A stretch of DNA of 64,000 nucleotides, from positions 8,558 through 72,557 of the forward strand of contig CAYVNO010000005.1 in assembly GCA_964452935.1 (NCBI GenBank), in the 5' to 3' direction. The notes beneath the pieces were generated by a model that was given only the letters and a program-made list of their open reading frames with translations, was not told the DNA's origin and searched no databases. Positions within the stretch are counted from its first letter, which is position 1. The number at the start of each line of letters is the position of its first letter. Of this stretch, positions 2,912 to 25,563 are shown piece after piece. The stretch comes from an uncultured Methanosarcinales archaeon (GTDB lineage: Archaea; Nanobdellota; Nanobdellia; Woesearchaeales; DSVV01). The position numbers and the translations under genes are program-made.

Positions 2912-2925
2912 AGGAGGAGAAACAA

Positions 2926-3945: not shown

Positions 3946-3978
3946 TTTTTTTCTTTTTTTTGAAAAGGAGAATATAAG

Positions 3979-5652: not shown

Positions 5653-5661
5653 AGATTTTTA

Positions 5662-6171: not shown

Positions 6172-6227
6172 ACTTACTTAGAGTTTATGATGTTTAATAA
6201 CCGCACTTCATAATTTGGTATTGTTAG

Positions 6228-6243
6228 GTATTACCTTCTCCGA
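6228..6243 (+). promoter_or_regulatory. Copy 1 of GTATTACCTTCTCCGA element, upstream of TATA-like CTATTAAT and the methylase start
   Basis: Exact 16-mer. It lies 36 nt before ATG 6280 in the divergent integrase/methylase spacer. Confidence 0.6.
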
Positions 6244-6279
6244 GTTTTCTCTATTAATCATTGTAATCTTTAGGTTTAC

Positions 6280-6987
6280 ATGTTAAACAAAATCTACTGC
6301 ATGGACAATCTGAAATATCTTAAGAAAGTAAAAGATGATTCTGTTGATCTTGTGGTAATTGATCCTCCTTATAATGTCAGCCAAAAGAATAATATTAATT
6401 GCAAGAAAATAAAGGTTGTAAAGAATTTTGGTTCTTGGGATTATGGCTTTGACCCAGTTCCTGTTTTGAAGGAATTGAAGAGGGTTTTGAAACCTAATGG
6501 ACAAATTTACATATTCTGTGCTACTAAACAAATTCCAATTTATATGAAAATACTTGAAGAGGAGTGGTTTTTTAGGAATTTATTAGTTTGGTATAAGACA
6601 AATCCTGCTCCTAGGTTATCGAAGACTAATTATGTCTTTGCTAATGAGTACATTCTTTATGCAATTAACGAGAAAGTTAAACCTTCCTCAGCAACATTTA
6701 ACTTTTTGGGGCAGGTTCAAATGCATAATACAATTATTACCTCTGCTCTACAGGGGAAAGAAAGATTGAAGAAAGATGGCAAGGCTTTGCATCCGACTCA
6801 GAAGCCATTGTCAGTGTTGAAGAAGTTGATCTCTGTATCAAGTAATGAAGGCGATGTTGTTCTTGATGTGTTTATGGGTGTTGGTTCAACTGCTGTTGCT
6901 TGTAAGGAACTAGGTAGAAATTTTATGGGATGTGAGAGTGATATCCAATATTATCATTCAGGAATAGAAAGATTATCAAAGAATTAA
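6280..6987 (+). CDS. DNA methyltransferase, beta-class N6-adenine/N4-cytosine type (DPPY)
   Basis: Motif IV VVIDPPYNV precedes C-terminal motif I FMGVGSTAVACKELGRNFMGCE. Confidence 0.85.
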   Translation: MLNKIYCMDNLKYLKKVKDDSVDLVVIDPPYNVSQKNNINCKKIKVVKNFGSWDYGFDPVPVLKELKRVLKPNGQIYIFCATKQIPIYMKILEEEWFFRNLLVWYKTNPAPRLSKTNYVFANEYILYAINEKVKPSSATFNFLGQVQMHNTIITSALQGKERLKKDGKALHPTQKPLSVLKKLISVSSNEGDVVLDVFMGVGSTAVACKELGRNFMGCESDIQYYHSGIERLSKN

Positions 6988-10195: not shown

Positions 10196-10342
10196 ATGCC
10201 AAGAATTAAGCTGGAGGGTTACTTTTGTACAAGGTGCGGTCATAAGTGGGTTCCTAGAGATAATAATGAAAAACCAACAGTTTGCCCTAAATGCAAAAGT
10301 CCGTATTGGGATAAGCCTAGAAAAAATGAAAAAAGTCTTTAG
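10196..10342 (+). CDS. 48-aa zinc-ribbon protein (not in the supplied ORF track)
   Basis: Hand translation gives MPRIKLEGYFCTRCGHKWVPRDNNEKPTVCPKCKSPYWDKPRKNEKSL, with two CxxC pairs. It overlaps the proposed dcm start by 17 nt. Confidence 0.5.
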   Translation: MPRIKLEGYFCTRCGHKWVPRDNNEKPTVCPKCKSPYWDKPRKNEKSL

Positions 10343-11324
10343 AACTATAGACCTATTCGCAGGAGTAGGGGGTGTTAGATTAGGATTTGAAAGAGCTGGT
10401 TTTAAAACTGTTTTTGCCAATGATTTTGACAAGACCTGTAAACAAATTTATAATATTAATTTTAAAGAGCCCAAACTTATTATTGAAGATATCTGGAAGG
10501 TTGAAATATCAAAACTTCCTAAATTTGATATCCTTTTAGGAGGATTTCCCTGCCAAGCATTCAGCATTGCAGGGTATAAAAAAGGCTTCAAAGATGAAAA
10601 GAATGGGGGAAATTTATTTTTTAGAATTGCTGAAATATTAGAGGAGAGAAAGCCTGAGGCAATCCTTCTTGAAAATGTTAAAAACCTAAAAACACATGAT
10701 AAAGGGAAAACTTTCAAAATTATTAAAGCGACATTAAAAAAATTAGGATATCATATTAAAACAGAAGTGTTAAACAGTATGACTCACGGCAATGTGCCTC
10801 AGAATAGAGAACGAATTTTTATTGCAGGATTTCTCGATAAAAATAAAGCAGACTGTTTCAGATTTCCAGAGGAGATTCCCTTAACTATATCGTTTAGAGA
10901 ATTGGTGGCAGAAAGAGCAGATAATAAATATTATTACAATGATAAGCCTCTATACAAAAGAATTAAAGATGACATAAATTCAGAACATACTGTTTACCAA
11001 TGGAGAAGGAAATATGTAAGAGCAAATAAAAAAGGAGTCTGTCCTACACTTACAGCAAATATGGGAAGAGGAGGGCATAATGTCCCAATTATAAAAAATA
11101 GTAAGGGGATAAGAAAGCTGACTCCTAAAGAATGTTTTCTTATTCAAGGATTCCCTAAAAACTTTAAACTTCCCGAAGATCTATCTGACAGTAATTTATA
11201 TCATCAAGCAGGAAATAGTGTGACTGTTCCTGTAATTGAAAGAATCGCTTTTAATATGAGAAATGTTCTGCTTGGAAAAGTCAAACCAAGAAAAGACATT
11301 TTAACATCATACATAGATAATTAA
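10326..11324 (+). CDS. dcm: DNA (cytosine-5)-methyltransferase
   Basis: Motif I DLFAGVGG, motif IV GGFPCQAFS, motif VI ENVKNL, motif VIII QNRERIFI, motif X GNSVTVPV. The start is chosen at MKKVFRTIDLFAG; the track ORF starts at 10266. Confidence 0.92.
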   Translation: MKKVFRTIDLFAGVGGVRLGFERAGFKTVFANDFDKTCKQIYNINFKEPKLIIEDIWKVEISKLPKFDILLGGFPCQAFSIAGYKKGFKDEKNGGNLFFRIAEILEERKPEAILLENVKNLKTHDKGKTFKIIKATLKKLGYHIKTEVLNSMTHGNVPQNRERIFIAGFLDKNKADCFRFPEEIPLTISFRELVAERADNKYYYNDKPLYKRIKDDINSEHTVYQWRRKYVRANKKGVCPTLTANMGRGGHNVPIIKNSKGIRKLTPKECFLIQGFPKNFKLPEDLSDSNLYHQAGNSVTVPVIERIAFNMRNVLLGKVKPRKDILTSYIDN

Positions 11325-12373
11325 ATTTGTTTTCTTATTTTCTCTATATATTGCTTTGGACTCTCAATTATTACATTATTTAGATTCCTTTGTGCGATCC
11401 AGATATTGTTTCTTTTTAAAGAAGGGTTCATTCCCACAGTAATAAACCAGCATTCATACACTTTGCCTTTTTCCAGATCAAAAGTACCAAGCACCTTATT
11501 TTTAATGACAGCATTATTTTTTGCATGAATATACAATCTTTGAGAAGATAATTTCCCATTTTTATAATTTTTCTTTAGATAAACATCAATATCTCCTTTA
11601 TAATCAAAAGAACCAAACTCCTTTGGTTTAGGCAGATTATTACTCATTATTACAGGAAATTTTCCTGATTTAAGAGATAGTTTTTCAAAAGGATTATCAT
11701 CAGATAATATTTTTTTAGTTGTCATACCACTTGCTTCTTTTATTAGTTCTGTTTCATAGAGATATGAACCTTGATTAAACGGAACTCCATGTTTTTGTAG
11801 ATCATTTCCTGTGATAATGTATTGGACTTTAACAATTAAATCTCCGACTTCACAGAATTTTTTTAATAAGTCTAAATCTATTTTTGATTTTAGATAAACA
11901 CCCAATGGATCAATATCACCCTCTTTGTTTTTTGTCAATAAAGTTGCATAAATGAGTATAACTTTTTCAGTTTTGTTGTCTACAAGTCTATCAGAAAGAA
12001 TAGTATTAAATTGTTCTGCAGTCAAACCAATCCATCTGTCAGCCTCAGAAATATTTTTTATTTCGACATATAGATTAGGTTCCCTTAAATTATTATTCTC
12101 AACAATTTTGACAATATCTGGATCGGATATATTGTCTTTGCTTAATTCATGAATATCAAAATCTAAAATGCATTTTTTCTTGGTTTCCTTTTCAATAATC
12201 TTTGCTACTCCAATCTCAATTAATTTTCCTATAACAAAGCTGTCAAATATTCCTCCAAGCCCTCTATATTGACCTGTAGTTCTATTTGCAGCCATCTTAG
12301 TTTTATCTAAATGATATTCAACTGCAAATTTAAAACATTTGTCTAAATCTTCTTCTTTTATTTTGTATTCCAT
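11321..12373 (-). CDS. Probable type II restriction endonuclease partner of the m5C methylase
   Basis: It converges on dcm with a 4-nt overlap and is co-oriented with vsr. It has a PD-(D/E)xK-like core, SDPDIVKI...LYVEIKNI. Specificity is unknown. Confidence 0.55.
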   Translation of the reverse strand: MEYKIKEEDLDKCFKFAVEYHLDKTKMAANRTTGQYRGLGGIFDSFVIGKLIEIGVAKIIEKETKKKCILDFDIHELSKDNISDPDIVKIVENNNLREPNLYVEIKNISEADRWIGLTAEQFNTILSDRLVDNKTEKVILIYATLLTKNKEGDIDPLGVYLKSKIDLDLLKKFCEVGDLIVKVQYIITGNDLQKHGVPFNQGSYLYETELIKEASGMTTKKILSDDNPFEKLSLKSGKFPVIMSNNLPKPKEFGSFDYKGDIDVYLKKNYKNGKLSSQRLYIHAKNNAVIKNKVLGTFDLEKGKVYECWFITVGMNPSLKRNNIWIAQRNLNNVIIESPKQYIEKIRKQI

Positions 12374-12374
12374 C

Positions 12375-12776
12375 TTAATCTGCTTTTTTTACTATTTTAT
12401 TAACAACCTTAACCAAATCTGCTTTTATTTGGTGCTCCCACAATGTTAATATTTTAAAACCTGATTGTTTAAGTATTTTTTTGTTTCTAGCGTCTCTTTT
12501 CACATTCTTTTCTAATTTGGGAAGCCAGTATTCCTTCTTGCTTTTAGGTTCTTTATAGCATTTTGGACACTTATGCCAGAAACAGCCATGCAAAAAAACA
12601 ACAGTATTGGTCTTTGTTAAGAGAAGGTCTGGGTTTCCATGAATAGAAGGATGCATCTTATGTTTGATTTTTCTTCCTTTTAAATAATTATGAATCTTTT
12701 TCTCTTGAGCAGTCCACTTGCTTCTAATTCTAGACATACATTTTGATCTTTGCTCTTTTGTCAAATTATCAGACAT
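12375..12776 (-). CDS. vsr: Very-short-patch repair endonuclease
   Basis: RSKCMSRIRSK, GNPDLLL, FLHGCFWHKC, EYWLPKLEKNVKRD and LTLWEH are collinear with E. coli Vsr. Confidence 0.9.
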   Translation of the reverse strand: MSDNLTKEQRSKCMSRIRSKWTAQEKKIHNYLKGRKIKHKMHPSIHGNPDLLLTKTNTVVFLHGCFWHKCPKCYKEPKSKKEYWLPKLEKNVKRDARNKKILKQSGFKILTLWEHQIKADLVKVVNKIVKKAD

Positions 12777-12817
12777 TTACTATATATAATAATCTTCTAT
12801 TTAAAGTTTTTTCCCCA

Positions 12818-12833
12818 GTATTACCTTCTCCGA
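12818..12833 (+). promoter_or_regulatory. Copy 2 of GTATTACCTTCTCCGA element, upstream of TATA-like CTTTACATAT
   Basis: Exact 16-mer. It lies 39 nt before in-frame GTG 12873 and 48 nt before ATG 12882. Confidence 0.6.
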
Positions 12834-12881: not shown

Positions 12882-13037
12882 ATGCAATGTATGATATGTG
12901 AAAAGGAACTCAAAACCAAAGAAGCAGTAATGTGTAAGACCTGCTTAGATTTCTTTGAATGGAAATACAAGAGCTTTGAGAATTTCCAAACTTCCCGTAA
13001 TAAAGCCCTTAAATCTAATGGAGGTAAAGGAAAATGA
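12882..13037 (+). CDS. Small zinc-finger protein (51 aa), first gene of the pilus-like operon
   Basis: MQCMICEKELKTKEAVMCKTCLDFF has CxxC...CxxC. Its stop overlaps the next start (ATGA). The start could instead be GTG 12873. Confidence 0.5.
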   Translation: MQCMICEKELKTKEAVMCKTCLDFFEWKYKSFENFQTSRNKALKSNGGKGK

Positions 13038-13288
13038 CTGAGGGAACATTGTTTGAGATATTTATTGCTTTGCTCTTTGTTGATTTAATACTAGCTCTTG
13101 CTGTGATCATTAAATTGAAACTCAAGAAACCAAACAAGTTAAAGAAAGCACAGCAGAAGCTCTTGATTTCAGTTTCTGAGCTAAACAATGAGAAAGAAAT
13201 GCTCATCAAAGAGATTGATGAACTAGAAGAGCAGATTGACACAAAAAACCTAGCATTCAAAAAACTGTTTGGGGGTGAAACACAATGA
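13034..13288 (+). CDS. Single-TM protein with coiled-coil tail
   Basis: TM segment FEIFIALLFVDLILALAVII followed by a charged heptad-like tail. ATGA overlaps occur on both sides. Confidence 0.55.
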   Translation: MTEGTLFEIFIALLFVDLILALAVIIKLKLKKPNKLKKAQQKLLISVSELNNEKEMLIKEIDELEEQIDTKNLAFKKLFGGETQ

Positions 13289-13620
13289 AAATACTGCCTT
13301 TGCTGTTTTTGATGCTGTTGACAATAACTCTAGCAACACCACTTGTACTAGCGACAATTGACTTTGATCAAGGTCTTACTCAAGATGAGGAAGACATGAT
13401 TGATGAGATTTTAGCTCCAGTAATGAAAGTCTACAACTTCATAAAATATGCAGCTACTGTTGCTGGAGTATTGATGCTGGTCTTTGCAGGAATAACCTTT
13501 GTCACAGCAGGAGGAGACACAGGACAAAAAGAGAAAGCCAAAAACATGGCTGTGGGTGTAGTCATTGGATTAATCATAATCTGGGTCGCACCTTTAGTAG
13601 TGGAGTTTATCTTCACATGA
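13285..13620 (+). CDS. TrbC/VirB2-like pilin candidate
   Basis: 111 aa. It has a signal peptide (LTITLATPLVLA), then two hydrophobic helices (AATVAGVLMLVFAGITFV and VGVVIGLIIIWVAPLVV) joined by a short GGDTGQKEKAKN loop. This is the VirB2/TrbC architecture. Confidence 0.6.
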   Translation: MKILPLLFLMLLTITLATPLVLATIDFDQGLTQDEEDMIDEILAPVMKVYNFIKYAATVAGVLMLVFAGITFVTAGGDTGQKEKAKNMAVGVVIGLIIIWVAPLVVEFIFT

Positions 13621-15659
13621 AAAAAACAATTTTTATTTTAGTGACAGCAGTTTTACTGCTGTCCAATTTTGTTTATGCTTTTGATTGTAGTTTAACCTAT
13701 GATGAAGACTACTGTAATGAAATCCTAGAATCCGAATTAAATGAAACTGAAAAAGATTTGTTATTCTCTACTTTGCTCTATCAAGATAGTACTTTCCCTG
13801 ATCATGAATTTATTGAAGATTATAATCTTAATTTTTATGTAGACTCTCCTCCAGATAATACAACATACAGTTCAACACAAATAAAGAATGCTTGGCTCTC
13901 TTTCTTAGCAGTATTTCCAGCTGTATATGAAAATAACACCTTGTATGTTTTTGAAGAATTGAAAGCATTAAGTGAATACAACTATGATGTCCAAATACCA
14001 ACAGAAACAAAACCAAATGACTGCAAAACTGAATATACTTTAGTTAATGATCAAGCTCAATTGAATTATTATCTTAATGGCAATTACAAAGAGGATGATA
14101 AACTTGCTTTGTTGTACATTGATCAAGATGGCACTTTAACAGCAGAATTAGAAATAAACACAAATGTTGAGGTTGACCATTATGAATGGTATTACTACTG
14201 CTGTGCTTGGGGTAAAAAAGGACAATGTACTAAATATTGTAAGAAATGTAAATATGCTTACACTGATTATGAATATGATAATTTAATAATTTCTGAGGAC
14301 AAAGAGATAGAACTCTATACAGAAGAACCAACAGCAGATTTAATAGTAGTAAATCAATACCAAAATACAACTAAAGGGATATTTACAGCTGAGAATTATA
14401 GTTTTTTCAGATTAAGCTTTGAAGATTCATACTTAACTAAACAAAACTACTATTATGACTTAGTATTTGAAAAGAAACCTTATCACTTTGCATATCTTAG
14501 AGCTGTTCCTTATGAAGATACAAAAATAAAAAACATTTTTGTAAACAATGATACATTCTTTGTAAAGAATACAAACAACTGTTCATTAACTGCTTACAAT
14601 CACTTTTATAACTTCACCTCTGGTTGTGATCTAATTTTATATCAGGAAAATATAGAAGAATTAAGCATAGAAACAGATGATATTGACTTAAGTATATTAC
14701 TTTATGTTTTAGTATTTTTAGGAGTTATTTACATAATTTATAGGTTATTAAAATCACAATACAAAAAGATAATACTGCCCATATTATTTATTATCTTATT
14801 CATACCTTTTGTATCAGCAGATGATTCAGAAGAATGTGGAATAACTAATTTAGCTTCATGTCTGCCAGAGGCAATATATGAATACTTTTTGTATTTGATT
14901 AACTTGCCTGTTTTACCTTTCCTTGCAGGAATTGAAGCAATGTTAACAGCAGATATTGCAATTGATTTATTTTTTGGAGTATGGAATGTGATAAGATACC
15001 TCTTAAGTTTCTTTTATGTATTCTTATTGATCTATGTAGGATATGTTTTCATTACCTCGAACTCTAACCCAATAAAAAGAGCTCATGCTAAGGATATGTT
15101 AAAGAATATTTTTTTAATGTTAATATTAATACAAGGATCATTTTATATCTATGGCTTGGCTTTGGATATTAATGCGGTATTAACTGATGCAATATTATCA
15201 ATGATTGATCCTACCTTCTTTTTGATTACAGTTGACAATGTAGCTAACGTAGCACTGGAAGGAGTTTATTTATCCACTTATTGTTTTACTTTATTTATTA
15301 CATTACTGATGTTGGTATTTAGATATGTTGTTGTTTGTTTGGGTGTGATAATTTTCCCTATTGGAATATTTTGCTATTTTATCCCTCCCTTGAAAGGTTA
15401 TGGCAAGTTTATCATCAATGTTTTAGCTATTTTTATCTTCATTACATTTTTGGATTTGTTGATTGTGTTATGTTGCTCAATGATAGTTGAGCTTCCTTTA
15501 TTTGAGAATATCAAGATTTTAATAATGATAAATTGCTTTTCAATGATAATTTACTCAATGTGGCTTGCAATAAGATTTGCAATGAGAATGTCCACTAACA
15601 CTTCATTGAAAGACGATTTGAATCAAGCTGTGAAATATATAGCTATGGTTGCTGTTTAA
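13617..15659 (+). CDS. VirB6/TrbL/CedA-like polytopic membrane protein with large secreted N-domain
   Basis: Signal peptide, about 350-aa extracytoplasmic domain with a Cys cluster (YYCCAWGKKGQCTKYCKKCKY), then 8 or more TM helices. It directly follows the pilin-like gene. Confidence 0.5.
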   Translation: MKKTIFILVTAVLLLSNFVYAFDCSLTYDEDYCNEILESELNETEKDLLFSTLLYQDSTFPDHEFIEDYNLNFYVDSPPDNTTYSSTQIKNAWLSFLAVFPAVYENNTLYVFEELKALSEYNYDVQIPTETKPNDCKTEYTLVNDQAQLNYYLNGNYKEDDKLALLYIDQDGTLTAELEINTNVEVDHYEWYYYCCAWGKKGQCTKYCKKCKYAYTDYEYDNLIISEDKEIELYTEEPTADLIVVNQYQNTTKGIFTAENYSFFRLSFEDSYLTKQNYYYDLVFEKKPYHFAYLRAVPYEDTKIKNIFVNNDTFFVKNTNNCSLTAYNHFYNFTSGCDLILYQENIEELSIETDDIDLSILLYVLVFLGVIYIIYRLLKSQYKKIILPILFIILFIPFVSADDSEECGITNLASCLPEAIYEYFLYLINLPVLPFLAGIEAMLTADIAIDLFFGVWNVIRYLLSFFYVFLLIYVGYVFITSNSNPIKRAHAKDMLKNIFLMLILIQGSFYIYGLALDINAVLTDAILSMIDPTFFLITVDNVANVALEGVYLSTYCFTLFITLLMLVFRYVVVCLGVIIFPIGIFCYFIPPLKGYGKFIINVLAIFIFITFLDLLIVLCCSMIVELPLFENIKILIMINCFSMIIYSMWLAIRFAMRMSTNTSLKDDLNQAVKYIAMVAV

Positions 15660-15716
15660 CTTTCTTAAGAATCTTTAGAAACAATATGCCCATAATTTAT
15701 TGTTGATTAAGTTGTA

Positions 15717-16604
15717 TTAAAAATGAGTGGGATATCTTTGTCTCAATCTTTCTCTAGTTACTGCCATATTTTCTCTATATCTTGCATTAGCTTCACTAAT
15801 TTGAGAATCTTGAATACCATTTAGTCTTGCATCACACCTATCAATACCATCACCACCCAAATCAATAACTTCTATGGGTCTTTGAACAGTTAACTCTAAT
15901 GGATTAGCTCTAGAAATGTCAGTAATAACAAATTCAAATACATGGGAAGTTTCATCATAAGAAAATGATGAATATCTCCCTTCTGGTGCATCTGTAATTG
16001 TTAAAGTTGCATCATATCCCTTTCTATGTACAAAACCAACATTTCTAATTCTTTCTAAAGTTTCATCATCAAAAACAGCACTAAATGTCCATTTAGGTCT
16101 ATACTCCCATTCTTGAGTTTTTCTCCATTTCTCATTAAACGCTCTTAACTCATCAATCTGAGTTTGGGTTTCAGAATCTCCAGAACAATTCTGAGGCCAA
16201 GCTTCTAAGATTTCAGGATGTGTAACAGTGATCCTTTTGAAAAGAGCTCCGTAAGTATTAGCTCCATTTAAACTTTGATTCAAAACAGTATTTAAGAAAT
16301 ATCTATCACCTATATCCGCAGAAGTCATTTCATCTTCATTCATTAATTCAGCTGCAAATTCATAAGCTTCTGTGTAAGCTCTGACAAAGGCTGGTAAATC
16401 TTTATCTGATAATGCCTTATCCATAGCCTCATAAGCTAAATCAAATTGTTCATGAATATTAGAAGAAGCTTCTCTACTTTTCAAGAGTTCATCAACAGAC
16501 ATTTTGGTATTGTCTGCACTATCATCATCACCTTTATTACAAGCAACTCCCCCCCCCATTATCAGTAGGGTGGTTAATAATGCTAAATCATGATATCTTC
16601 TCAT
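15717..16604 (-). CDS. Lipobox-bearing secreted protein, paralog A
   Basis: Signal peptide ending GGGVAC. It is Lys-poor and acidic. The C-terminal block DLGGDGIDRCDARLNGIQDSQI is shared with 16660..17580. Confidence 0.7.
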   Translation of the reverse strand: MRRYHDLALLTTLLIMGGGVACNKGDDDSADNTKMSVDELLKSREASSNIHEQFDLAYEAMDKALSDKDLPAFVRAYTEAYEFAAELMNEDEMTSADIGDRYFLNTVLNQSLNGANTYGALFKRITVTHPEILEAWPQNCSGDSETQTQIDELRAFNEKWRKTQEWEYRPKWTFSAVFDDETLERIRNVGFVHRKGYDATLTITDAPEGRYSSFSYDETSHVFEFVITDISRANPLELTVQRPIEVIDLGGDGIDRCDARLNGIQDSQISEANARYRENMAVTRERLRQRYPTHF

Positions 16605-16659
16605 AATCTATTTAGAATTGGCCTTAGCTTATATATTTTATTATTTTGAAGTCTTCTCT

Positions 16660-17580
16660 TTATATTCCTGGAAAGAACCCAGTTCCTTCATATCTCTCAT
16701 GAAGTTTATCCCTAGAAGTATGTAAACAAGAATCATATTGGGAATTAGCAGAGTCAATTTGTGATTCTTGAACTCCATTTAATCTTGCATCACATCTATC
16801 AATACCATCACCACCCAGATCAAGAACATCACATTCTCTAGTTACTGAGGTAGCTATTCCATTATTTTGAGTAGTAAATAAGCTAAATCTAATGAAAGAT
16901 GCATCTTCATACCAATCTATTCTTGTAAAAGTTCCAGGAGTTAAGTATCTTGAACTATCATTCATGGAAGCTCCATGAGGAAGATTTGCATTTCTTGTTA
17001 ACTCTAAAGTTCCATCATCATGTATGGTCATCCACTCCCACATATCAATCTGAATACCTTCATCTCTTCTTTTATTATTAACAAATCCCACCATATCACC
17101 AATCATTGATTTAGCATCAGAATATTCATCACCACAATCACTTGGCCAATCTCTCAACATTTCAGGATTTGCCATAATTTGTGCAAAAATCTGGCCATAA
17201 GTACCTCTACTGGTGTCATAAAAAGTCTCATGCCAAGCAGCATCAGTTACTAAGCCCATTTCTCCAATCTCTTCCATAAATTCACGAGTATCTCTATATG
17301 CGTCGACAAAAGCAGGTAAGTCTTTTTGAGCTAAAGCATCATCCATTTCTTTGTAGTGTTCATTTCTTTTTTCAAAATACTCTTTTTGCATCTCAGCCAA
17401 TTCCTCTATAATTTGAGTTCCCACTACTTCAGTTATTCTAGTATTTCTACTTGAAACAGTTACCCTATCTTCTAATTCTTCAGATAAGGGATCTTTAGGA
17501 TCTTCACAACCAGCTAGAAGACTAATTAAAGGAACTGTTGCTAACATTGTCCAAAGTCGATTATAAGTCATAAATCTCAT
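16660..17580 (-). CDS. Lipobox-bearing secreted protein, paralog B
   Basis: Signal peptide ending LLAGC. It shares KDLPAFV, the WP..C motif and DLGGDGIDRCDARLNGVQESQI with paralog A. Confidence 0.7.
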   Translation of the reverse strand: MRFMTYNRLWTMLATVPLISLLAGCEDPKDPLSEELEDRVTVSSRNTRITEVVGTQIIEELAEMQKEYFEKRNEHYKEMDDALAQKDLPAFVDAYRDTREFMEEIGEMGLVTDAAWHETFYDTSRGTYGQIFAQIMANPEMLRDWPSDCGDEYSDAKSMIGDMVGFVNNKRRDEGIQIDMWEWMTIHDDGTLELTRNANLPHGASMNDSSRYLTPGTFTRIDWYEDASFIRFSLFTTQNNGIATSVTRECDVLDLGGDGIDRCDARLNGVQESQIDSANSQYDSCLHTSRDKLHERYEGTGFFPGI

Positions 17581-17709
17581 GACAGTCTATATTGTTTATA
17601 TATTTTACCAATCTAAATCACCCAATTTATAAACTAATTGCCCTGAAAGTTCACAATCAGTGAATTTAATCTATAAAACCAACTTATTTGGAAATTCATA
17701 AACACAAAA

Positions 17710-17725
17710 GTATTACCTTCTCCGA
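17710..17725 (+). promoter_or_regulatory. Copy 3 of GTATTACCTTCTCCGA element, upstream of TATA-like TTTTATAT
   Basis: Exact 16-mer. It lies 36 nt before ATG 17762, the same spacing as copy 1. Confidence 0.6.
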
Positions 17726-17761
17726 CATCTGCTTTTATATCATCAGAGCCCTGATATTTAT

Positions 17762-20700
17762 ATGAGCTATGACATTCCACCACCATTACAACACAAGGAA
17801 AAGATAATGTTTGGGCTAACTTTCCCTCAACTAGGCTATGCTTTCTTGGCTTTCATAATAATATTTGTAATTATATTCAAGATTAACCTACCAATTGCAG
17901 TAAGTGGAACTATTTCTTTATTTGTCGTATCCATTGCTTCATTCTTCATGTTCTTTGATGGGAGAAAAAGATTAGTTTCTTGGTATAACTACTTAAGAAA
18001 TCCAAAAGTTGAAGTTTTGAGCGATCAATTAAAAAAAATAGTTGACATAAAAAAGATAGAAAACAATTCAATTCAGAAATCAAAATCTAAATTAGCAATA
18101 TTAGAAGTTATTCCAATGAATTTCATGCTAAAGACAGAAGAGGAAAAAGAATCCATCATAATAACCTTCCAGAAATTCCTTAATTCTCTAGATTTTCCAA
18201 TACAAATACATATCTCAAGCAATCCAATCAGCTTAAGTGGACATTTAAAATACACAAATAATCAAGTACAGAAGAAGATAAAAGAGAAAAAAGATAAATC
18301 TTTAAACAAATTAATTGACTCATACTGTAATTTTGTAAACTCTTCTATAAAAGATAACAGCATTCAAAACAGAAACTTTTACATAATAATCCAAGAGAAA
18401 GATAACTTAGACATGCAGGTAGAAGTATGTAAAGATAAATTAACCTCTTTAGGTGTAAAAGTTAGAAGATTAGAAACTCCAGATATCATAAACATGCTTC
18501 ATCAGCAGATAGCAAACAATAAAGACAAGGAGTTTAATAAAGAAGAGATAAAAGATTTGGCACATTTCATGTTTGCTCCAGATAAAGTTAATTTCTTGGC
18601 AGATCATTTCAAAGTAGATGATAAATTTTGCAAGATAATAGCTGTAACTGGATACCCACATAGTGTAGAAATGGGCTTTATGGATAAGATAATCTCTTCT
18701 GGTGATAAGTATGATATTAGTTTACATATTGAACCATTCCCAATAGAAACAACAATGGTTGATTTAAATAGAGATTTACAAAAACAACAATCAGACATAT
18801 ATGCTGATTCAAAAAAAGGCATTCTTAACCAATCATTAGAGATAAAGTTCAAGTCAACAAAGAGAGTTCTTGAAGATTTGCAGAAAGGCAAGCAAAAACT
18901 GTTCAATATTTCTTTATACATCATGTGTAAAGGAGACTCTAAAGAAGATATTGATTTACTAGGAAAGAAAATAAAAGCAGATTTAGATGGCTTAATGATA
19001 CAAAATGCTATTCCAAAATATCAAATGATGGAATCTTACACAAGCACACTGCCTTTAGCAAATAATGTTTTAGATATTAAAAGAAATATACATACAGAAG
19101 GACTTGGAGCATTTTTTCCATTCTCTTCTCCATTCTTAGACATTGACAATGATGGTATAATGCTTGGTTTAAACAAAAACAAAATACCATTAATAAAAAA
19201 CATTTTCAACTTAGCCAATGCAAATGGAATTATACTGGCAACATCAGGCTCTGGTAAAAGTTATTTTACTAAACTTTTGCTCTCAAGACAATATATGAAC
19301 GGCTGTGATGTTATTATCATTGATCCTCAAGGAGAATACTTAGCAATAACAGAGCATTACAAAGGAGAATCTATTACAATCTCTAAAGATTCAAAGACAA
19401 TCATTAATCCATTAGATTTAATGGGGCATGAATATTTAGAAAAAAGATTGTCATTAATGGATTTATTCCCTATAATGTTTGGGGATATTAATGAATTGCA
19501 AAAATCTATACTAGATAGAGCAATAGACATGACTTACAGTAACAGAGGAATTACTAGGGATGATTATGAATCACATGTTCCACCTACAATGGGTGAATTA
19601 TATAATATGTTAAGAAAATTAGAAAAAGATGCAGTCCAGCAGGAAAAAGTAACATACAGGGCTTTGATAAACAGAATTCACATGTATACAAAAGATGGTG
19701 TGTTTGGTTTCTTAGACAGACAAACAGAGATTAATTTTGATAATAATTTTGTTTGTTTTAATATAGGACATATGCCAAAACAAGTAAAGCCTGTTGTAAT
19801 GTATTTAGTTTTAGATTATGTTTTCATGAGAATGAAGAATAGTAATAAAAGAAAATTATTAGTTGTTGATGAAGCTTGGTCAATGCTTCAAACAGCAGAA
19901 GAATCTTCATATATATTTGAAATTGTAAAGACTTGTAGAAAATATAACTTAGGATTATTAATGATTACCCAAGATGTTGCAGATCTTGTGGCATCTAAAG
20001 CAGGGCATGCTGTGTTGACTAACACTTCATATACCTTTTTATTAAGGCAGAAACCTGCTGTAATTCAAAACGTTTCTAAGACCTTCAATCTTAGCCAGAC
20101 TGAAAAAGAGTTCATTATATCGGCTAAATTGGGCTCAGGAATACTAATTATGGAGAATGATCATCAAGAATTAGAAGTTATAGCTTCTCCTGAAGAACAT
20201 AAATTAATCACTACAAATCCAGACGAAATGATTAAGATGGGTGAGAAGAAAAAGCCTAAAGATTCTGGGATAAAAAAGGAAGATGAACAAGCTAACTTAG
20301 ATTTAAACAAAATAGTATTCTCTGGAGAAGGATTGACATTAGTACAAATAAATTTCTTAAATAATAATAGCTATGTTTTCAAGAAAGCTTGTGGATTACA
20401 CAGTAATGTGCCAAAGAAATTTTATGTAAAGGAAAGACCACCAGAATCTATTGATCATACTCTGCTTGTTGGCTTGATTGTTGAAGAATTAAAAAAACAT
20501 ACTGATAAGGTTAATGTTTACCAAACAAAAAAACCAGATATAATTTTCAAAAATAAAGTTGGACAGGAGATTGTTCTAGAAATTGAAACTGGAATTGGTT
20601 TTGACAAGCACAAGAAAAGACTTGAAGAAAAGTTTTCTGAGCTGAAGAAGAAAAAAGGAAAAAGAGCTTACATTGTTTTGACAGAGTTAAAGATCAAGAA

Positions 20701-20824
20701 TAGATACTTGAGGTTTGGTTTGCCCATACTAGGCAGAGCAGATATAGAAAGGTTTGTAATGCAACAATTTAGTGGTAAGAAGAACTCACATATAGGGCGG
20801 GATTTATGCATTACAAATGAATAA
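17762..20824 (+). CDS. VirB4/TrbE/CedB-like conjugation-type ATPase with N-terminal TM (VirB3-like) segment and C-terminal extra domain
   Basis: Two N-terminal TM helices, Walker A ATSGSGKSYFTK, Walker B LLVVDEAWSM and LLMITQDVADL. The roughly 200-aa C-terminal extension contains ESIDH...KKPDIIF...EIVLEIETG. Confidence 0.85.
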   Translation: MSYDIPPPLQHKEKIMFGLTFPQLGYAFLAFIIIFVIIFKINLPIAVSGTISLFVVSIASFFMFFDGRKRLVSWYNYLRNPKVEVLSDQLKKIVDIKKIENNSIQKSKSKLAILEVIPMNFMLKTEEEKESIIITFQKFLNSLDFPIQIHISSNPISLSGHLKYTNNQVQKKIKEKKDKSLNKLIDSYCNFVNSSIKDNSIQNRNFYIIIQEKDNLDMQVEVCKDKLTSLGVKVRRLETPDIINMLHQQIANNKDKEFNKEEIKDLAHFMFAPDKVNFLADHFKVDDKFCKIIAVTGYPHSVEMGFMDKIISSGDKYDISLHIEPFPIETTMVDLNRDLQKQQSDIYADSKKGILNQSLEIKFKSTKRVLEDLQKGKQKLFNISLYIMCKGDSKEDIDLLGKKIKADLDGLMIQNAIPKYQMMESYTSTLPLANNVLDIKRNIHTEGLGAFFPFSSPFLDIDNDGIMLGLNKNKIPLIKNIFNLANANGIILATSGSGKSYFTKLLLSRQYMNGCDVIIIDPQGEYLAITEHYKGESITISKDSKTIINPLDLMGHEYLEKRLSLMDLFPIMFGDINELQKSILDRAIDMTYSNRGITRDDYESHVPPTMGELYNMLRKLEKDAVQQEKVTYRALINRIHMYTKDGVFGFLDRQTEINFDNNFVCFNIGHMPKQVKPVVMYLVLDYVFMRMKNSNKRKLLVVDEAWSMLQTAEESSYIFEIVKTCRKYNLGLLMITQDVADLVASKAGHAVLTNTSYTFLLRQKPAVIQNVSKTFNLSQTEKEFIISAKLGSGILIMENDHQELEVIASPEEHKLITTNPDEMIKMGEKKKPKDSGIKKEDEQANLDLNKIVFSGEGLTLVQINFLNNNSYVFKKACGLHSNVPKKFYVKERPPESIDHTLLVGLIVEELKKHTDKVNVYQTKKPDIIFKNKVGQEIVLEIETGIGFDKHKKRLEEKFSELKKKKGKRAYIVLTELKIKNRYLRFGLPILGRADIERFVMQQFSGKKNSHIGRDLCITNE

Positions 20825-20995: not shown

Positions 20996-21394
20996 TTAAT
21001 TTCCCAGGGATAATTTAACCGCTTCTAAAATTCCCTCTAATTGATCATCCTGAATTTCCTTCTCTGACAACGTACGAATCCTATCTCTTTTTTCTTGGGG
21101 AGGAATCACTTCTCGTTCTATTGGTGCAATTTGAATCTCCTCATCATATCCACATCTATGACGATACTTCGTGTCTAAATCTCCCCACCATCTATTATTA
21201 ACAGTAATTCCTTCGTCTTTGTAGGGAGTAGATGCAGAAAGAGCAGCAAGTCTGGCCGCATAATCCTCAACTTTATTACGAAATGTTTCTTGATCATCTT
21301 TTTGAAACGATAAATGAATTGAACGACGCTCTTTATCTAATTCTAAGTATTCACTAGTATGTTCTAATTCGTAAGTTATTTTTAATTTTCCCAT
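20996..21394 (-). CDS. Hypothetical protein (Lys-poor, acidic)
   Basis: 132-aa ORF with no recognisable motif. Confidence 0.5.
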   Translation of the reverse strand: MGKLKITYELEHTSEYLELDKERRSIHLSFQKDDQETFRNKVEDYAARLAALSASTPYKDEGITVNNRWWGDLDTKYRHRCGYDEEIQIAPIEREVIPPQEKRDRIRTLSEKEIQDDQLEGILEAVKLSLGN

Positions 21395-22330: not shown

Positions 22331-22858
22331 TTAAACATCTTCCATCTTAAACAACTGCTTTGAATACTCTTTGTCTCTCATGAACTTGATCAAATCTTGG
22401 TGAGAACTAGCAGATCTTCCAACATCTTCCAGAACAACCATAGTTTCAGTGTTGCCTATACCTTCAATCTGTGCAATTTTAGTTACAAACCTTTTCAACT
22501 CTCTTATGTCCCTTGCCCTTACTCTCAACAAAATATCATTCTTTCCAGTTAGAGTACTTATACAAGAAATAAAAGGATACTTAGCAAACTGTTTAGCAAT
22601 ATCGACTTGAGTGGTTTGATTTCTTTGTACGTGTTGATAGTGTGTATTTATCAAAACATAAGCAACAACATACAAACCAATTTTTTCATGATCTATCTTA
22701 GCAGAGTAACGTTTAATCACACCTTTCTTTTCCATTCTTTTGATCCTGTTCATTACAGTCATGGTAGGAATATTAGTTATTTTAGAAATATCTCGATGTG
22801 ACATTCTAGCATTGTCTATCAACACTTCCAATATTTTGAAGTCCTTTTCATCTGGCAT
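22331..22858 (-). CDS. Lrp/AsnC-family transcriptional regulator
   Basis: HTH FKILEVLIDNARMSHRDISKITNIPTMTVMNRIKRMEKKGVIKRY plus a RAM-like C-terminal domain. The start overlaps the upstream stop (TAATG). Confidence 0.85.
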   Translation of the reverse strand: MPDEKDFKILEVLIDNARMSHRDISKITNIPTMTVMNRIKRMEKKGVIKRYSAKIDHEKIGLYVVAYVLINTHYQHVQRNQTTQVDIAKQFAKYPFISCISTLTGKNDILLRVRARDIRELKRFVTKIAQIEGIGNTETMVVLEDVGRSASSHQDLIKFMRDKEYSKQLFKMEDV

Positions 22859-23979
22859 TATATTCTCCTCACAAATGCTCTTCTTCCATCTGAAGTTACA
22901 TGTAGATTAATATGGGCATTTTCTCCTCTATCAAGTTGTTTATCAAAAATTTCGTCATCATCTGGAGTGAGTACATCATCACCATCATGAATTATTGACA
23001 CTTGAGGTTTAAACACCTTTGACCTTTGCAAATGTCCAATAGTTAAATCAGATAATAATTTGTCAAAATTACCATGTCCTACCATTTGGACTTTTCTTTT
23101 TCTTGCTACAATCTCAGGAAAGATCACATTATAGTGGAAATCGTATGAACCATCCTCTCCCATAGTATCAAATTCCCATTCCCCTAAATAACAAACAGTG
23201 ATTTTACAGTCAATTCCTTCAGGAGGGGTTGCTCCTCTAACAAAAGGAACTTCAAATTCACCTTTTTCAGGGTCTCTATCTAAATTAAATTCTGAAGGAG
23301 AAAAGTCTCTTGTTCTATGGTATTGTAAAAAATAATTTTTATCACCAGCAGTTATAAATTCCATAATTGGACAATGATTAGGGTCAAAATTATCTAAATT
23401 TCTGATTTGTTCATAAAAATCAACAAGTTGTTGTAATCCATTTCTTTGTTGTTCAGGAAGATATCCAAACATAAGTGTAACATGAGCATTTTCTATTGTA
23501 ACATAACTTCTAACTCTGCCAAATTTTTGTTCATCGTTAGTCATTACATGGTATTTTCCTTTTATTGAAGAATCGGCAACAACAGCTCTACCAAACCCTT
23601 TTAATCTTTCCCAAATTGAGAAACGAGTTTCTTGTTTAAATGATTCCTTATCTATGTCTAGAAGATCACAATATTGTTCAAAATGTGGTGAGTCTTTAGT
23701 TTCTTCATACTGAAAGTATCTACCTTTTATCTCTTCAGCATCTGTTGATCCTCGATATCTTTTTTGTGAGAGTTTTGGACTATCTAATAAACCAGAAACA
23801 CCATCATACTCTTGTGTATGTTCTGATCTTAATAATATTGCTCTATGAGATCTTCTAGCCTCAGCTAAACTATCAAACCTTCTCGTAACAAGTATTCCAT
23901 TCTGTTCTACATAATCAGCAATTGTTCTTTTCGGTTGTCCATTCAACCTACTAGGATCTGCAGTATAATAATCGCCCAT
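22858..23979 (-). CDS. Hypothetical protein, weak resemblance to PEP/pyruvate-binding (PPDK_N, ATP-grasp) domain
   Basis: AILLRSEHTQEYDGVSGLLDS resembles the VRSSxxxED...FAG segment. It is Lys-poor and cotranscribed with the Lrp gene. Confidence 0.55.
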   Translation of the reverse strand: MGDYYTADPSRLNGQPKRTIADYVEQNGILVTRRFDSLAEARRSHRAILLRSEHTQEYDGVSGLLDSPKLSQKRYRGSTDAEEIKGRYFQYEETKDSPHFEQYCDLLDIDKESFKQETRFSIWERLKGFGRAVVADSSIKGKYHVMTNDEQKFGRVRSYVTIENAHVTLMFGYLPEQQRNGLQQLVDFYEQIRNLDNFDPNHCPIMEFITAGDKNYFLQYHRTRDFSPSEFNLDRDPEKGEFEVPFVRGATPPEGIDCKITVCYLGEWEFDTMGEDGSYDFHYNVIFPEIVARKRKVQMVGHGNFDKLLSDLTIGHLQRSKVFKPQVSIIHDGDDVLTPDDDEIFDKQLDRGENAHINLHVTSDGRRAFVRRI

Positions 23980-24520: not shown

Positions 24521-24766
24521 ATGCTAGTTCCAACCCAGTTGGTCACCAAAAAAATCATATCTGTTAATGGAAAAGTCTTTTACAATGATAGAAGACGGAG
24601 AATAGACCTAAAGAGACCTATAAGAGATATGTTTGAAGGAGAGGGTATGGAAATTTTTTATAAGATGGAAATATGTTTGGGTAATAAAAGAACAATTGAA
24701 AGAATTAAGGAATTAGCAGACAAAAATGTCACGCCAATAATAATGTATTTTATGGTGAAAAAATGA
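24521..24766 (+). CDS. Small hypothetical protein translationally coupled to TFB
   Basis: 81-aa ORF. GGGGG/TAATTGAA precedes the ATG, and its stop overlaps the TFB start (ATGA). Confidence 0.4.
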   Translation: MLVPTQLVTKKIISVNGKVFYNDRRRRIDLKRPIRDMFEGEGMEIFYKMEICLGNKRTIERIKELADKNVTPIIMYFMVKK

Positions 24767-25563
24767 ATAAATGCCTAGAATGTGGAAGCAAAGATCAACA
24801 CCAAGTACATACATCTGGGGAACTGGTCTGTAAAAAATGTGGGCTTGTTCTAGATGACATGCCGTTTGAAACTAACCCTTATGTTAGTGATGCAGAGAAA
24901 AGAACAGCAGATATCCCTTATTTAGCTAGAGCTGGAACTCAGAAGATGAATGGAAAATTCATAAAAGACAGCTGGTTGATGTCGACAAGGGAAAAGAACA
25001 TGAGAATTGCTAGACGCAGATTAGGGATAATGAGTTCAAAACTTGATCTATGCAATAAGGTAAAGAAAGAAGCTTATTTCCTTTTCAAGCTTGCAGTAGA
25101 TAGAGAACTAAATGTTGGAAGGGACAATTTAAGTATTTTATATGCTTGTGTTTATGCAGCATGTAAAATTCATCAAATTCCAAAGACTCCGTCCGAGATA
25201 ATCTCATATTCAAGCCTTTCAAGAACTAAATTGTTAAGAGCTTATAGCTTGATTAAGAAAGGTTTAGGGCTTAAAATTGGGATAACTAATATGGATGATT
25301 TTATCCCAAGATTCAGCTCAAGATTAGGGCTAAAACAAACAACAATAACAAAAGTTTATGAGATCATCAATAAATTAGAAGGAAGCCATGTCATTGCAGG
25401 AAAACATCCAAAGACCATTGTAGCTTCAGCTATTTATCTGGCTACAATCATTAAAAAGGATACAAGAACCCAGAGAGAAATAACTAATGCTACTGGAGTA
25501 ATAGAAGTTACAATAAGAAAAAGAAGTAAAGAGATTGCTGAAGAGTTGGGGGTAGAGGTTTGA
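24763..25563 (+). CDS. tfb: Transcription initiation factor IIB (TFB), short form
   Basis: Zn ribbon CLECGS...CKKCG followed by two cyclin-like repeats. At 266 aa it is shorter than typical TFBs. Confidence 0.85.
   Translation: MNKCLECGSKDQHQVHTSGELVCKKCGLVLDDMPFETNPYVSDAEKRTADIPYLARAGTQKMNGKFIKDSWLMSTREKNMRIARRRLGIMSSKLDLCNKVKKEAYFLFKLAVDRELNVGRDNLSILYACVYAACKIHQIPKTPSEIISYSSLSRTKLLRAYSLIKKGLGLKIGITNMDDFIPRFSSRLGLKQTTITKVYEIINKLEGSHVIAGKHPKTIVASAIYLATIIKKDTRTQREITNATGVIEVTIRKRSKEIAEELGVEV

Follow-up and report, generated by a model that had tools for sequence, protein, structure and literature searches.

Gene content of the cassette

[quoted passage not shown] The percent G+C content is approximately 31% across the window, and Pfam identified TFB, Lrp, and TrmB genes, marking the DNA as archaeal and AT rich. 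The data support an AT-rich DPANN archaeon as the host, with the relatives of the cassette in Woesearchaeota and Nanoarchaeota. Related contigs and assemblies that were compared with the window are labeled L002 to L024, and VirB4 homologs have P numbers. The cassette comprises the following genes and domains (ORF, open reading frame; TM, transmembrane).

12882..13037, + strand: Zn-ribbon protein (51 aa, cytoplasmic, CxxC...CxxC); an ORF, the first cassette gene, with weak matches to Zn-finger Pfam families
13034..13288, + strand: bitopic membrane protein (84 aa) with one N-terminal TM segment (hydrophobic residues 1 to 32) and a coiled-coil tail
13285..13620, + strand: VirB2/TrbC-type pilin precursor (111 aa; Pfam T4SS_pilin and TrbC)
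13617..15659, + strand: polytopic protein (680 aa), divided into the N-terminal module and membrane domain below
13617..14687, + strand: N-terminal module of the 680-aa protein (signal peptide plus Cys-rich, beta-rich ectodomain, residues ~21 to 357)
14691..15659, + strand: VirB6/TrbL-like polytopic domain (residues 359 to 680)
14979..15131, + strand: pilin-like helical hairpin in the polytopic domain (residues 455 to 505)
15717..16604 and 16660..17580, - strand: pair of lipoprotein paralogs (295 and 306 aa) that separates the 680-aa gene from VirB4
17762..20824, + strand: VirB4 ATPase (1,020 aa), composed of a VirB3-like hairpin, VirB4, and a nuclease-like domain
17786..17953, + strand: VirB3/PrgI-like two-TM hairpin of VirB4 (residues 9 to 64)
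17954..20212, + strand: VirB4 proper (TraC-like N-domain plus P-loop ATPase)
20315..20767, + strand: C-terminal extension of VirB4 (beta-alpha-beta-beta subdomain, residues 852 to 890; PD-(D/E)xK nuclease-like core, residues 897 to 1002)

All of the ORFs described in a first-pass annotation of this DNA were found in place, and so was its chain of four genes, with ATGA start/stop overlaps confirmed at positions 13034, 13285, and 13617 (the 84-aa gene has such an overlap at either end). The VirB2/VirB6/VirB4 gene string that it proposed is present but does not form an uninterrupted five-gene operon, as the two minus-strand lipoprotein genes split the set. Its description of a minimal T4SS-derived apparatus stands for the pilin, the VirB6-like protein, and VirB4, although it overlooked both the VirB3/PrgI-like hairpin and the C-terminal nuclease-like domain. 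The best reading of these genes is a five-gene DPANN cassette (i.e., Zn ribbon, bitopic protein, VirB2-type pilin, VirB6-type pore, and VirB3-VirB4-nuclease) derived from a monoderm (MPF-FATA-like) T4SS.

A VirB4 ATPase with a VirB3-like hairpin

The 1,020-aa protein, annotated from the outset as a VirB4-type ATPase, contains both Walker motifs (A, ATSGSGKS, at residue 493; B, LLVVDEAW, at residue 699), and VirB4 families gave the best scores. The NCBIfam matches included VirB4_plasma (Mycoplasma integrative and conjugative element [ICE], Mbov_0397; E = 3e-105, 353 bits), the CD1110 family (E = 7e-97; 325.4 bits, at the family cutoff of 325), TraC (1e-45), and VirB4_CagE (6e-39). Pfam P-loop_TraG matched at 1.4e-29, and Thermoanaerobacter VirB4 (PDB 4AG5) matched residues 462 to 817 (E = 2.6e-34). 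The sole Ced ATPase model in NCBIfam reached 31.8 bits (cutoff, 600), and the HerA models reached at most 24 bits; grouping the ATPase with VirB4 thus holds by bit score, the VirB4 families lying far above HerA. Assigned to a class from these family-model bit scores, the protein appears to side with the monoderm MPF-FATA-type ATPases (CD1110/Mycoplasma ICE). Its nearest plasmid homologs come from Firmicutes and Actinobacteria. At a threshold of 90% identity, the family falls into no fewer than 575 clusters, and "VirB4-like conjugal transfer ATPase" is already the database label of certain members.

At the N terminus, residues 9 to 64 matched Pfam PrgI at E = 1.2e-4 and 23 bits, below the family cutoff of 27. 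Two hydrophobic segments are present in this region (residues 15 to 67), and PF12666 (PrgI) is precomputed for the homologs P0020, P0021, P0062, and P0092.

A nuclease-like domain at the C terminus of VirB4

Residues ~840 to 1020 form a domain of ~170 aa outside the VirB4 core, the length and sequence of which are kept across the family. Residues H899, D926, E940, E942, G944, K957, and R992 are invariant in family alignments, and E895 is nearly so. An AlphaFold2 model of the C-terminal extension alone (pLDDT, 89; pTM, 0.86) has a core topology of alpha-beta-beta-beta-alpha-beta (in model numbering, helix 62 to 76; strands 82 to 84, 92 to 95, and 101 to 107; helix 116 to 133; strand 134 to 138). 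In this model, D926 (the "PD" residue) opens beta-2, E940-x-E942 lies in beta-3, K957 is in the next helix, and E895 and H899 are in the first helix. As modeled, this residue placement is the canonical geometry of a PD-(D/E)xK nuclease, with the motif variant ExE...K. The top Foldseek matches were all PD-(D/E)xK nucleases (NucS/EndoMS, YaeQ, Mus81, R.BspD6I, and Can2/Card1; probability up to 0.97). The nuclease assignment rests on fold and motif because sequence methods find nothing; with these two features in agreement, we regard it as probable that the domain is PD-(D/E)xK nuclease-like.

The extent of this architecture was assessed by an HMMER search of 1.84 billion representatives. The fused VirB4-nuclease persists down to 31 to 34% identity (P0198, P0203, and P0213), with taxonomic names attached to few of the most divergent fused homologs, and a split form with the ATPase and the nuclease (~760 aa) also exists. 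Other VirB4 relatives stop near residue 825 and lack the nuclease domain; those with names come from Micrarchaeota and Patescibacteria (Colwellbacteria among them), and one is an actinobacterial CD1110 protein. The VirB4-nuclease fusion is the most distinctive feature of the system. The first-pass annotation knew of no characterized system of this kind in such lineages, and likewise we found no description of a DPANN pilin/VirB6/VirB4 cassette or of a VirB4-nuclease fusion in the literature, of which coverage was incomplete, so that this result is absence of evidence only.

One variant of the system is split, with its genes arranged divergently (L018; logan SRR8146442 contig, positions 29 to 6871). 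One strand of this contig encodes a 286-aa protein with PrgI and TraC-N regions and a 763-aa protein with the ATPase and the nuclease, and the opposite strand encodes the pilin and two further proteins, of 583 and 410 aa. This layout shows that the fusions are lineage specific.

The pilin and the polytopic protein

The 111-aa protein matched T4SS_pilin (PF18895; E = 9e-12) and TrbC/VirB2 (PF04956; E = 1.5e-6), both above the Pfam gathering thresholds. Its signal peptide is followed by a short acidic stretch and then by a pair of hydrophobic helices that the charged loop TAGGDTGQKEKAKN connects. With its signal-like segment, helical hairpin, and Pfam scores above the cutoffs, the protein bears out its initial identification as a VirB2-type pilin. 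Pilin orthologs from related loci matched both PF18895 and PF04956 in 10 of 10 cases (best E values, 2.6e-13 and 5.3e-10, respectively), and PDB sequence searches with either the pilin sequence or its profile returned chance matches only (RNase kappa).

The 680-aa protein has a signal-like N terminus, a beta-rich ectodomain with conserved Cys residues (positions 24, 33, 136, 211, 322, and 337), and approximately eight hydrophobic segments past residue 353. An AlphaFold2 model built from the family alignment had a pLDDT of 78 overall and ~90 in the ectodomain (residues 89 to 336). The ectodomain is missing from the 308-aa polytopic versions of L006 to L009, and it is a separate ORF in L004 and probably also in L018; in L014/L015, the polytopic gene encodes just 205 to 230 aa. 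The 680-aa protein is modular, and its ectodomain module varies between lineages. This variable, Cys-rich module looks like a host-recognition module.

For the membrane domain, the only specific Foldseek matches were to TrwI/VirB6 of R388 (7o3v_G, probability 0.96; 8rtd_L, 0.94; a third, 0.84). The hairpin of the pilin (residues 49 to 99) aligned with residues 455 to 505 of the polytopic protein in hhalign (probability, 93.7%; E = 1.9e-7). In addition, an NCBIfam pilin-like family from the Mycoplasma ICE weakly matched both residues 448 to 518 of the 680-aa protein (E = 7e-5) and the 111-aa pilin. Such a relation between pilin and pore hairpins is known for CedA1/CedA and VirB2/VirB6 (Beltran et al., PMC9905601). 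The 410-aa polytopic ORF beside the pilin gene of L018 has a weak match to TrbL_3, and the accession of this family (PF19590) is precomputed for three homologs of the 680-aa protein. A Pfam scan of the 680-aa protein and 34 homologs yielded no match, and the precomputed PF26589 and PF19590 were not reproduced with the local library. We conclude that the 680-aa protein is likely, but not proven, to be VirB6-like. Of the initial label "VirB6/TrbL/CedA-like," the secreted Cys-bearing N-domain and the ~8 TM segments stand, the likeness to VirB6 is weak by Foldseek, and the Ced part found no support, as no Ced model matched.

Conservation of the gene string

A scan of one genome per GTDB species produced ten loci, eight of them labeled Woesearchaeota or Nanoarchaeota and two labeled as Methanosarcinales metagenome-assembled genomes (MAGs), which are probably misbinned. 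The search for the same gene string in related genomes, as advocated with its first description, recovered the pilin, polytopic protein, and VirB4 genes as contiguous in all nine related genome loci that reach upstream of VirB4, and they are contiguous in further contexts too. This recurrence is far beyond chance. The Zn-ribbon and small TM genes precede the trio even in the most divergent loci (L006 to L009): an ORF of 45 to 47 aa with CxxC...CxxC opens the cassette in L002, L003, L004, and L006 to L009, and the same loci contain a small TM ORF (61 to 129 aa) in the slot of the 84-aa protein, which is kept in position and not in sequence. The contigs that carry cassettes are up to 1.47 Mb long (some are 0.6 to 1.47 Mb).

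Two of the compared loci (L005 and L009) are the MAGs named "uncultured Methanosarcinales archaeon," and the VirB4 of L005 is 90% identical to that of the window. Each is likely to be an episymbiont contig binned with its host, which would hint that the host is a methanogen; the other possibility is gene transfer.

Genes are inserted at several points in the cassettes. Between the Zn-ribbon and TM genes lie a Dcm methyltransferase gene in L002 (6532 to 7455) and an N6/N4 methyltransferase gene in L004 (5248 to 5979), and a gene for an 810-aa UvrD-family helicase separates the VirB6-like gene from VirB4 in L003 (7519 to 9951).

The two lipoprotein genes of the window are cargo or an insertion and no part of the machine. 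Their products are 33% identical, have the C-terminal motif DLGGDGIDRCDARLNG in common, and are atypical for the genome in amino acid composition; the GC3 of the genes is native. The genes are missing from every related locus and occur in the cassette of this genome only. The lipoprotein family has three members in 5.8 billion proteins, and the lone outside homolog does not lie beside a T4SS. On these grounds (no counterpart in other loci, no T4SS with the outside homolog), a role as T4SS components was ruled out. A chimeric assembly at the insertion (a JGI contig ends inside the 306-aa lipoprotein gene) was ruled out as well, because the independent assemblies L011, L021, and L022 span the junctions and reproduce them at 99.99 to 100% identity.

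Neighboring genes and a shared sequence motif

The features around the cassette are as follows (R-M, restriction-modification).

5662-6171, - strand: tyrosine recombinase (169 aa, catalytic domain only), 7 kb upstream, at the border of housekeeping genes and the R-M island
6227..6243, + strand: 17-nt motif, copy with one mismatch, 5' of the N6/N4 methyltransferase gene at 6280
6280..6987, + strand: N6/N4 DNA methyltransferase gene (Pfam N6_N4_Mtase, 7.7e-43; 77% identical homolog in L003)
6988-8590, - strand: PDC-M02 pair, a PADLOC candidate defense system (B, E = 1e-54; A, E = 5e-47; A is a DUF4365 protein)
10266..12776, directly upstream of the cassette: Dcm-type cytosine methyltransferase, putative type II restriction enzyme, and Vsr nicking endonuclease (Pfam; weak PADLOC REase_II match)
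12817..12833, + strand: 17-nt motif AGTATTACCTTCTCCGA, exact, 49 nt 5' of the first ATG of the operon
17709..17725, + strand: 17-nt motif again, in another exact copy, 37 nt 5' of the VirB4 ATG
24521..25563, + strand: overlapping genes for an 81-aa protein and a TFB (TFIIB) paralog (Pfam TFIIB plus Zn ribbon)

Upstream of the cassette lies a defense-type island (i.e., the N6/N4 methyltransferase, PDC-M02 A/B, a DUF2779 protein, and the Dcm-restriction enzyme-Vsr genes), and past ~29 kb the window is housekeeping chromosome. The cassette adjoins Dcm and/or Vsr in three of the related loci (L002, L003, and L010) and type I R-M genes in L014/L015. ORFs of ~920 to 1,026 aa beside the cassette in L004, L006, and L007 resemble HsdR by eye only. 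The recurrent neighbors are all DNA linked, with R-M genes on the flanks of most loci. The cassette of the window sits in a variable island in which R-M and integrase genes abound.

Two further members of the island also recur. The PDC-M02 pair adjoins the cassette in L008 too. The DUF2779 protein, which has a Cas4-like nuclease region (8616-10058 in the window), lies within a few kilobases of the cassette also in L003, L006, and L014/L015; this recurrence may reflect a functional link or a shared island.

Downstream of VirB4, a gene pair for a small protein (~81 to 89 aa) and TFB is present in the window, L003, L004, L010, and L016. Between the window and L003, the TFB proteins are 52% identical and the VirB4 proteins 72% identical. 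Because it diverges faster than VirB4, the TFB looks like a specialized paralog and not a housekeeping factor, and it may be a dedicated transcription factor of the cassette.

The 17-nt motif, which can be written (A/G)GTATTACCTTCTCCGA, lies 37 to 49 nt before the starts of the methyltransferase gene, the operon, and VirB4, against a chance expectation of 0.09 matches. VirB4 is separated from the VirB6-like gene in only two other loci, L003 and L010, and there the motif core TTCTCCGA or related forms occur 5' of the same genes. From this placement, the motif is probably a shared promoter-proximal or leader control element. The pattern suggests that the methyltransferase, the operon, and VirB4 are coregulated and that, wherever an insertion splits VirB4 off, this gene has a control element to itself.

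Search for a relaxase and a coupling protein

Scans of the ORFs in the 64-kb window against Pfam and NCBIfam, together with the precomputed Pfam annotation of matching contigs, revealed no relaxase, no VirD4/TraG/FtsK-type coupling ATPase, and no VirB1, VirB8, VirB9, VirB10, or VirB11, in agreement with what had been reported from the sequence at first sight. No type IV coupling protein (T4CP) or relaxase was found within ~10 kb of VirB4 in the Pfam-annotated loci L014 to L017, nor did Pfam and NCBIfam detect either among the larger unannotated neighbors in related loci. The relaxase negatives come from Pfam and NCBIfam profiles.

A 61-aa protein with a weak match to a NikA-like (ribbon-helix-helix) Pfam family is encoded beside a 58-aa ORF at ~26571-26756 (- strand). 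It is more likely to belong to a toxin-antitoxin or regulator pair than to be a relaxosome accessory.

Other genes in the window

A protein with a GGDEF diguanylate cyclase domain is encoded at 27155-27829 (E = 1e-43), which is unusual in an archaeal genome. Its gene has an atypical D/E/R/G/A-rich composition in common with 20996-21394, 22858-23979, 29054-30757, and 49434-52382; judged from composition, these genes may have come from bacteria. Large surface proteins of 635 and 982 aa (47416-52382, - strand) contain He_PIG, Big_9, and PKD Ig-like repeats, and these are candidates for host-adhesion proteins of an episymbiont.

Comparison with known systems

By analogy of setting and parts, the closest described system appears to be the T4SS of Patescibacteria, which the first-pass annotation did not consider. 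This system, indispensable to epibiotic growth, is chromosomal, bears pilins, and has no relaxase (Wang et al. 2023, PMC10633639; Quinonero-Coronel et al. 2025, PMC12102498; PMC12857230). Like the cassette, it belongs to an ultrasmall, host-dependent, single-membrane organism, is chromosomal, and has no associated relaxase. The two also have in common a VirB4 related to the monoderm MPF-FATA class, probably VirB3/PrgI-like and VirB6-like proteins, and VirB2-like pilins of PF18895/PF04956, which are normally not found in monoderm T4SSs. The differences are that the cassette is archaeal and the known system bacterial; that a VirB3-like hairpin is fused to VirB4 here, whereas the study of the candidate phyla radiation (CPR) found no such fusion and the PrgI gene of L024 is separate; and that VirB4 has a C-terminal PD-(D/E)xK-like domain here and none in the CPR proteins examined. 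Furthermore, the cassette has no detected VirB1-type hydrolase or VirB8/TrsD homolog (L024 has an M23 peptidase), one pilin gene instead of arrays, a Cys-rich ectodomain on the pore protein, and R-M genes and a TFB paralog as neighbors instead of dnaA. Its VirB4 is 32 to 33% identical to the CPR VirB4s, similar to the values for Micrarchaeota and the actinobacterial CD1110 protein. Judged from the archaeal host, this level of identity, and the lack of VirB1/VirB8/TrsD partners, the cassette does not appear to fall in the Patescibacteria VirB4 clade.

The crenarchaeal Ced and Ted systems import DNA with a VirB2-like pilin, a polytopic protein, and a VirB4-like ATPase and have no relaxase (van Wolferen 2016; Beltran et al. 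2023, PMC9905601). The cassette resembles them in being an archaeal minimal trio without a relaxase or T4CP, in the pilin-like hairpin of its pore protein (as in CedA/CedA1), and in the cleavable-looking signal peptide of its pilin (as in TedC). The description "Ced/Ted-like" therefore fits as a parts list but not as a specific sequence relation: the ATPase scores 32 bits with the one NCBIfam Ced model versus 353 with the VirB4 ICE family and 325 with the CD1110 family, its nearest plasmid homologs are those of Firmicutes and Actinobacteria, and the pilin and pore protein match no Ced model. In addition, neither a VirB3 fusion nor a nuclease domain is reported for the Ced/Ted ATPases, the hosts of these systems are hyperthermophilic Thermoproteota, the systems are linked to UV/DNA damage repair, and Ted occurs with Rad50/HerA/ParA genes rather than with R-M genes.

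Conjugative T4SSs of monoderms (MPF-FATA; i.e., pCF10 Prg, pCW3 Tcp, the CD1110 family, and Mycoplasma ICE Mbov_0395/0397) provide the best VirB4 family match and have a PrgI-type VirB3 homolog. Unlike them, the cassette has no T4CP, relaxase, VirB8-like or VirB1-like protein, or adhesin, and it combines a VirB2-type pilin with a VirB4-fused nuclease-like domain in an archaeal host and a chromosomal setting.

A comparison also extends to MOB_C relaxases (TraX of pAD1 and MobC of CloDF13), which consist of a winged helix and a PD-(D/E)xK domain and form no covalent intermediate in their processing of DNA for a T4SS (PMC12857230). The predicted model of the VirB4 C-terminal extension has a comparable two-part layout. 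MOB_C relaxases, however, are free-standing, no sequence similarity to them was detected, and the VirB4 subdomain before the core was not identified as a winged helix. The relation would thus be a functional analogy only.

Finally, giant SPEARE-type proteins of nanohaloarchaea carry a VirB4/TraG ATPase domain (PMC10266531). They are similar in placing a DPANN VirB4-family ATPase in a proposed host-interaction machine, beside a second VirB4-like ATPase, and different in being giant Ig-repeat surface proteins with an embedded ATPase. No pilin/VirB6 cassette is described for them, and a nuclease domain once claimed is disputed.

Proposed mechanism and alternative explanations

We tentatively favor the view that the cassette encodes a minimal pilus-forming translocon for nucleic acids, in which a nuclease tethered to VirB4 replaces the relaxase and the coupling protein and which has a domesticated role in uptake or exchange. 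In this scheme, a membrane-anchored VirB4 hexamer would dock on the VirB6-like pore and pull pilin from the membrane, building a thin pilus through the surface layer; we take pilin extraction by VirB4 in bacterial systems as the precedent. The variable ectodomain would touch the partner or host cell. The substrate would be nucleic acid, most likely DNA, and the nuclease at the cytoplasmic mouth of the channel would nick or cut this DNA while the ATPase moves it. A separate relaxase and VirD4-type coupling protein would be dispensable because the tethered nuclease would process the DNA, and coregulated DNA methyltransferases would mark self DNA. The favored direction is uptake of DNA from, or exchange with, neighboring or host cells in a domesticated chromosomal role, because it parallels Ced/Ted import and fits a nucleotide-scavenging lifestyle. 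The initial preference for DNA import or exchange with a host over classical export is thus retained here, with export by a conjugative element as its main rival.

A bolder version of this scheme strikes us as rather doubtful. It holds that the cassette is a self-sufficient translocation machine and the simplest T4SS known, in which one polypeptide would be anchor, motor, coupling factor, and DNA-processing enzyme. A VirB2-type pilus would pull in or exchange DNA of the host or neighbors, the methyltransferases would mark self DNA, and the TFB paralog would switch the machine on, making it the archaeal counterpart of the Patescibacteria T4SS.

Several points weigh against the translocon with a tethered nuclease. 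In the nuclease-like domain, the beta-3 motif is ExE and not ExK, and the Foldseek statistics are modest (E, ~1e-3; TM, 0.3 to 0.38). Searches of PDB with this domain, as a single sequence and as a profile, returned chance matches (ubiquitin-like "LEVE" strings; Cas4 4IC1, E = 1.3), and Pfam gave no consistent family for 22 C-terminal domains. The TrwI/VirB6 matches of the pore protein are weak (E, 0.03 to 0.06; TM, 0.35). The R-M genes may be mere coresidents of a defense island, and we infer both the substrate and the direction of transport. The Patescibacteria analog is suspected of moving proteins or RNA and not DNA. A gene for a T4CP or relaxase may lie in another part of the genome; the t4cp genes of Patescibacteria are usually distant from virB4 (PMC12102498). 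The remaining points concern mobility. The closest characterized VirB4s (CD1110/Mycoplasma ICE types) are conjugative. The window, L004, L008, and L017 have tyrosine integrase genes close to the cassette, and the cassette is present twice in one MAG (L006/L007) and twice on a contig of 780 kb.

These mobility-related observations form the core of the first alternative, namely, that the cassette is the transfer module of an integrated conjugative element that exports DNA. The fused domains (winged-helix-like plus PD-(D/E)xK) would then be a built-in MOB_C-like relaxase or nickase, of the kind that TraX of pAD1 exemplifies, VirB4 would double as the coupling protein, and the methyltransferases would be antirestriction cargo that premethylates the DNA. 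The variable island with its R-M and candidate defense genes and the UvrD helicase gene inside the L003 cassette are consistent with this explanation, and known archaeal conjugative plasmids likewise have no recognizable relaxases (PMC9905601, PMC12857230). Characterized archaeal conjugative plasmids do, however, have a VirD4-like protein (PMC12857230), and none is present here. In the window, we detected no tRNA genes or Rfam RNAs, no element boundaries, and no replication or partition module, and a search for att-type direct repeats returned only the 17-nt motif and the lipoprotein paralogy. The only integrase in the window is the 169-aa catalytic domain, which may be a remnant or a minimal recombinase; the N-terminal half of an SSV-type split integrase was searched for in the window and not found. 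The neighbors of the cassette, save for the R-M genes and the TFB pair, vary between loci. No relative was found among IMG/VR viral contigs scanned with the VirB4 profile, and none of the related loci was seen on a viral or plasmid-like contig. The original statement that the apparatus is carried on an integrated element is not borne out by these results, nor by the relatives on contigs of 0.6 to 1.5 Mb. Overall, we consider a conjugative element possible but unlikely; the locus may be a domesticated one within a variable island, or it may be a mobile element that is decayed or minimal.

A second, still less probable alternative is a Patescibacteria-like T4SS for host interaction, which would transport proteins, effectors, or RNA or whose pilus would mainly serve for adhesion to, or feeding on, the host cell, with the nuclease as a regulatory, self-defense, or substrate-degrading accessory. 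Patescibacteria VirB4s (32 to 33% identical) are among the nearest nuclease-free relatives, PF18895 also detects CPR pilins (PMC12102498), and the Patescibacteria system is a chromosomal one that lacks a relaxase and a coupling protein and on which epibiotic growth depends (PMC10633639). A 2026 preprint ties T4SS-like tubes to feeding on host RNA (10.64898/2026.06.21.733656). The host-recognition look of the pore ectodomain and the nucleotide salvage genes in the window would also fit. Conservation of the motor-fused nuclease down to 31% identity nevertheless argues for a nucleic acid substrate in the archaeon's own cytoplasm, and the methyltransferase and helicase genes inside the cassettes point to DNA. 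Moreover, there are no conserved effector-like genes beside the cassette, and its single pilin gene contrasts with the multipilin arrays of Patescibacteria.

A membrane-associated defense system, in which a HerA/FtsK-superfamily ATPase-nuclease would degrade incoming DNA at the membrane, is very improbable: ATPase-nuclease pairs are common among defense systems, the ATPase weakly matches PADLOC mad8 (1e-16) and HerA models, and the cassette adjoins PDC-M02, type II R-M, Vsr, and Cas4-like DUF2779 genes, but the VirB4-family scores are far stronger (353 bits), and the TraC-like N-domain, VirB3 hairpin, VirB2 pilin, and VirB6-like pore are T4SS specific and have no role in known defense systems.

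Implications for DPANN archaea

The cassette is a compact and widespread candidate for the means by which DPANN archaea obtain nucleotides or macromolecules from their hosts. It is likewise a candidate for the movement of archaeal DNA between cells without a recognizable relaxase, and the VirB4-nuclease fusion suggests an answer to the missing relaxase and coupling protein in archaeal and minimal T4SSs. The nuclease-like domain is soluble and assayable, which makes it a biochemical entry point, and the ectodomain of the pore protein could determine host range. Given the parallel with Patescibacteria, it is possible that the two radiations of ultrasmall symbionts came to use related machines of conjugative descent, either each on its own or through gene transfer. 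If the proposed reading is true, two radiations of ultrasmall symbionts would make convergent or shared use of conjugation-derived machines.

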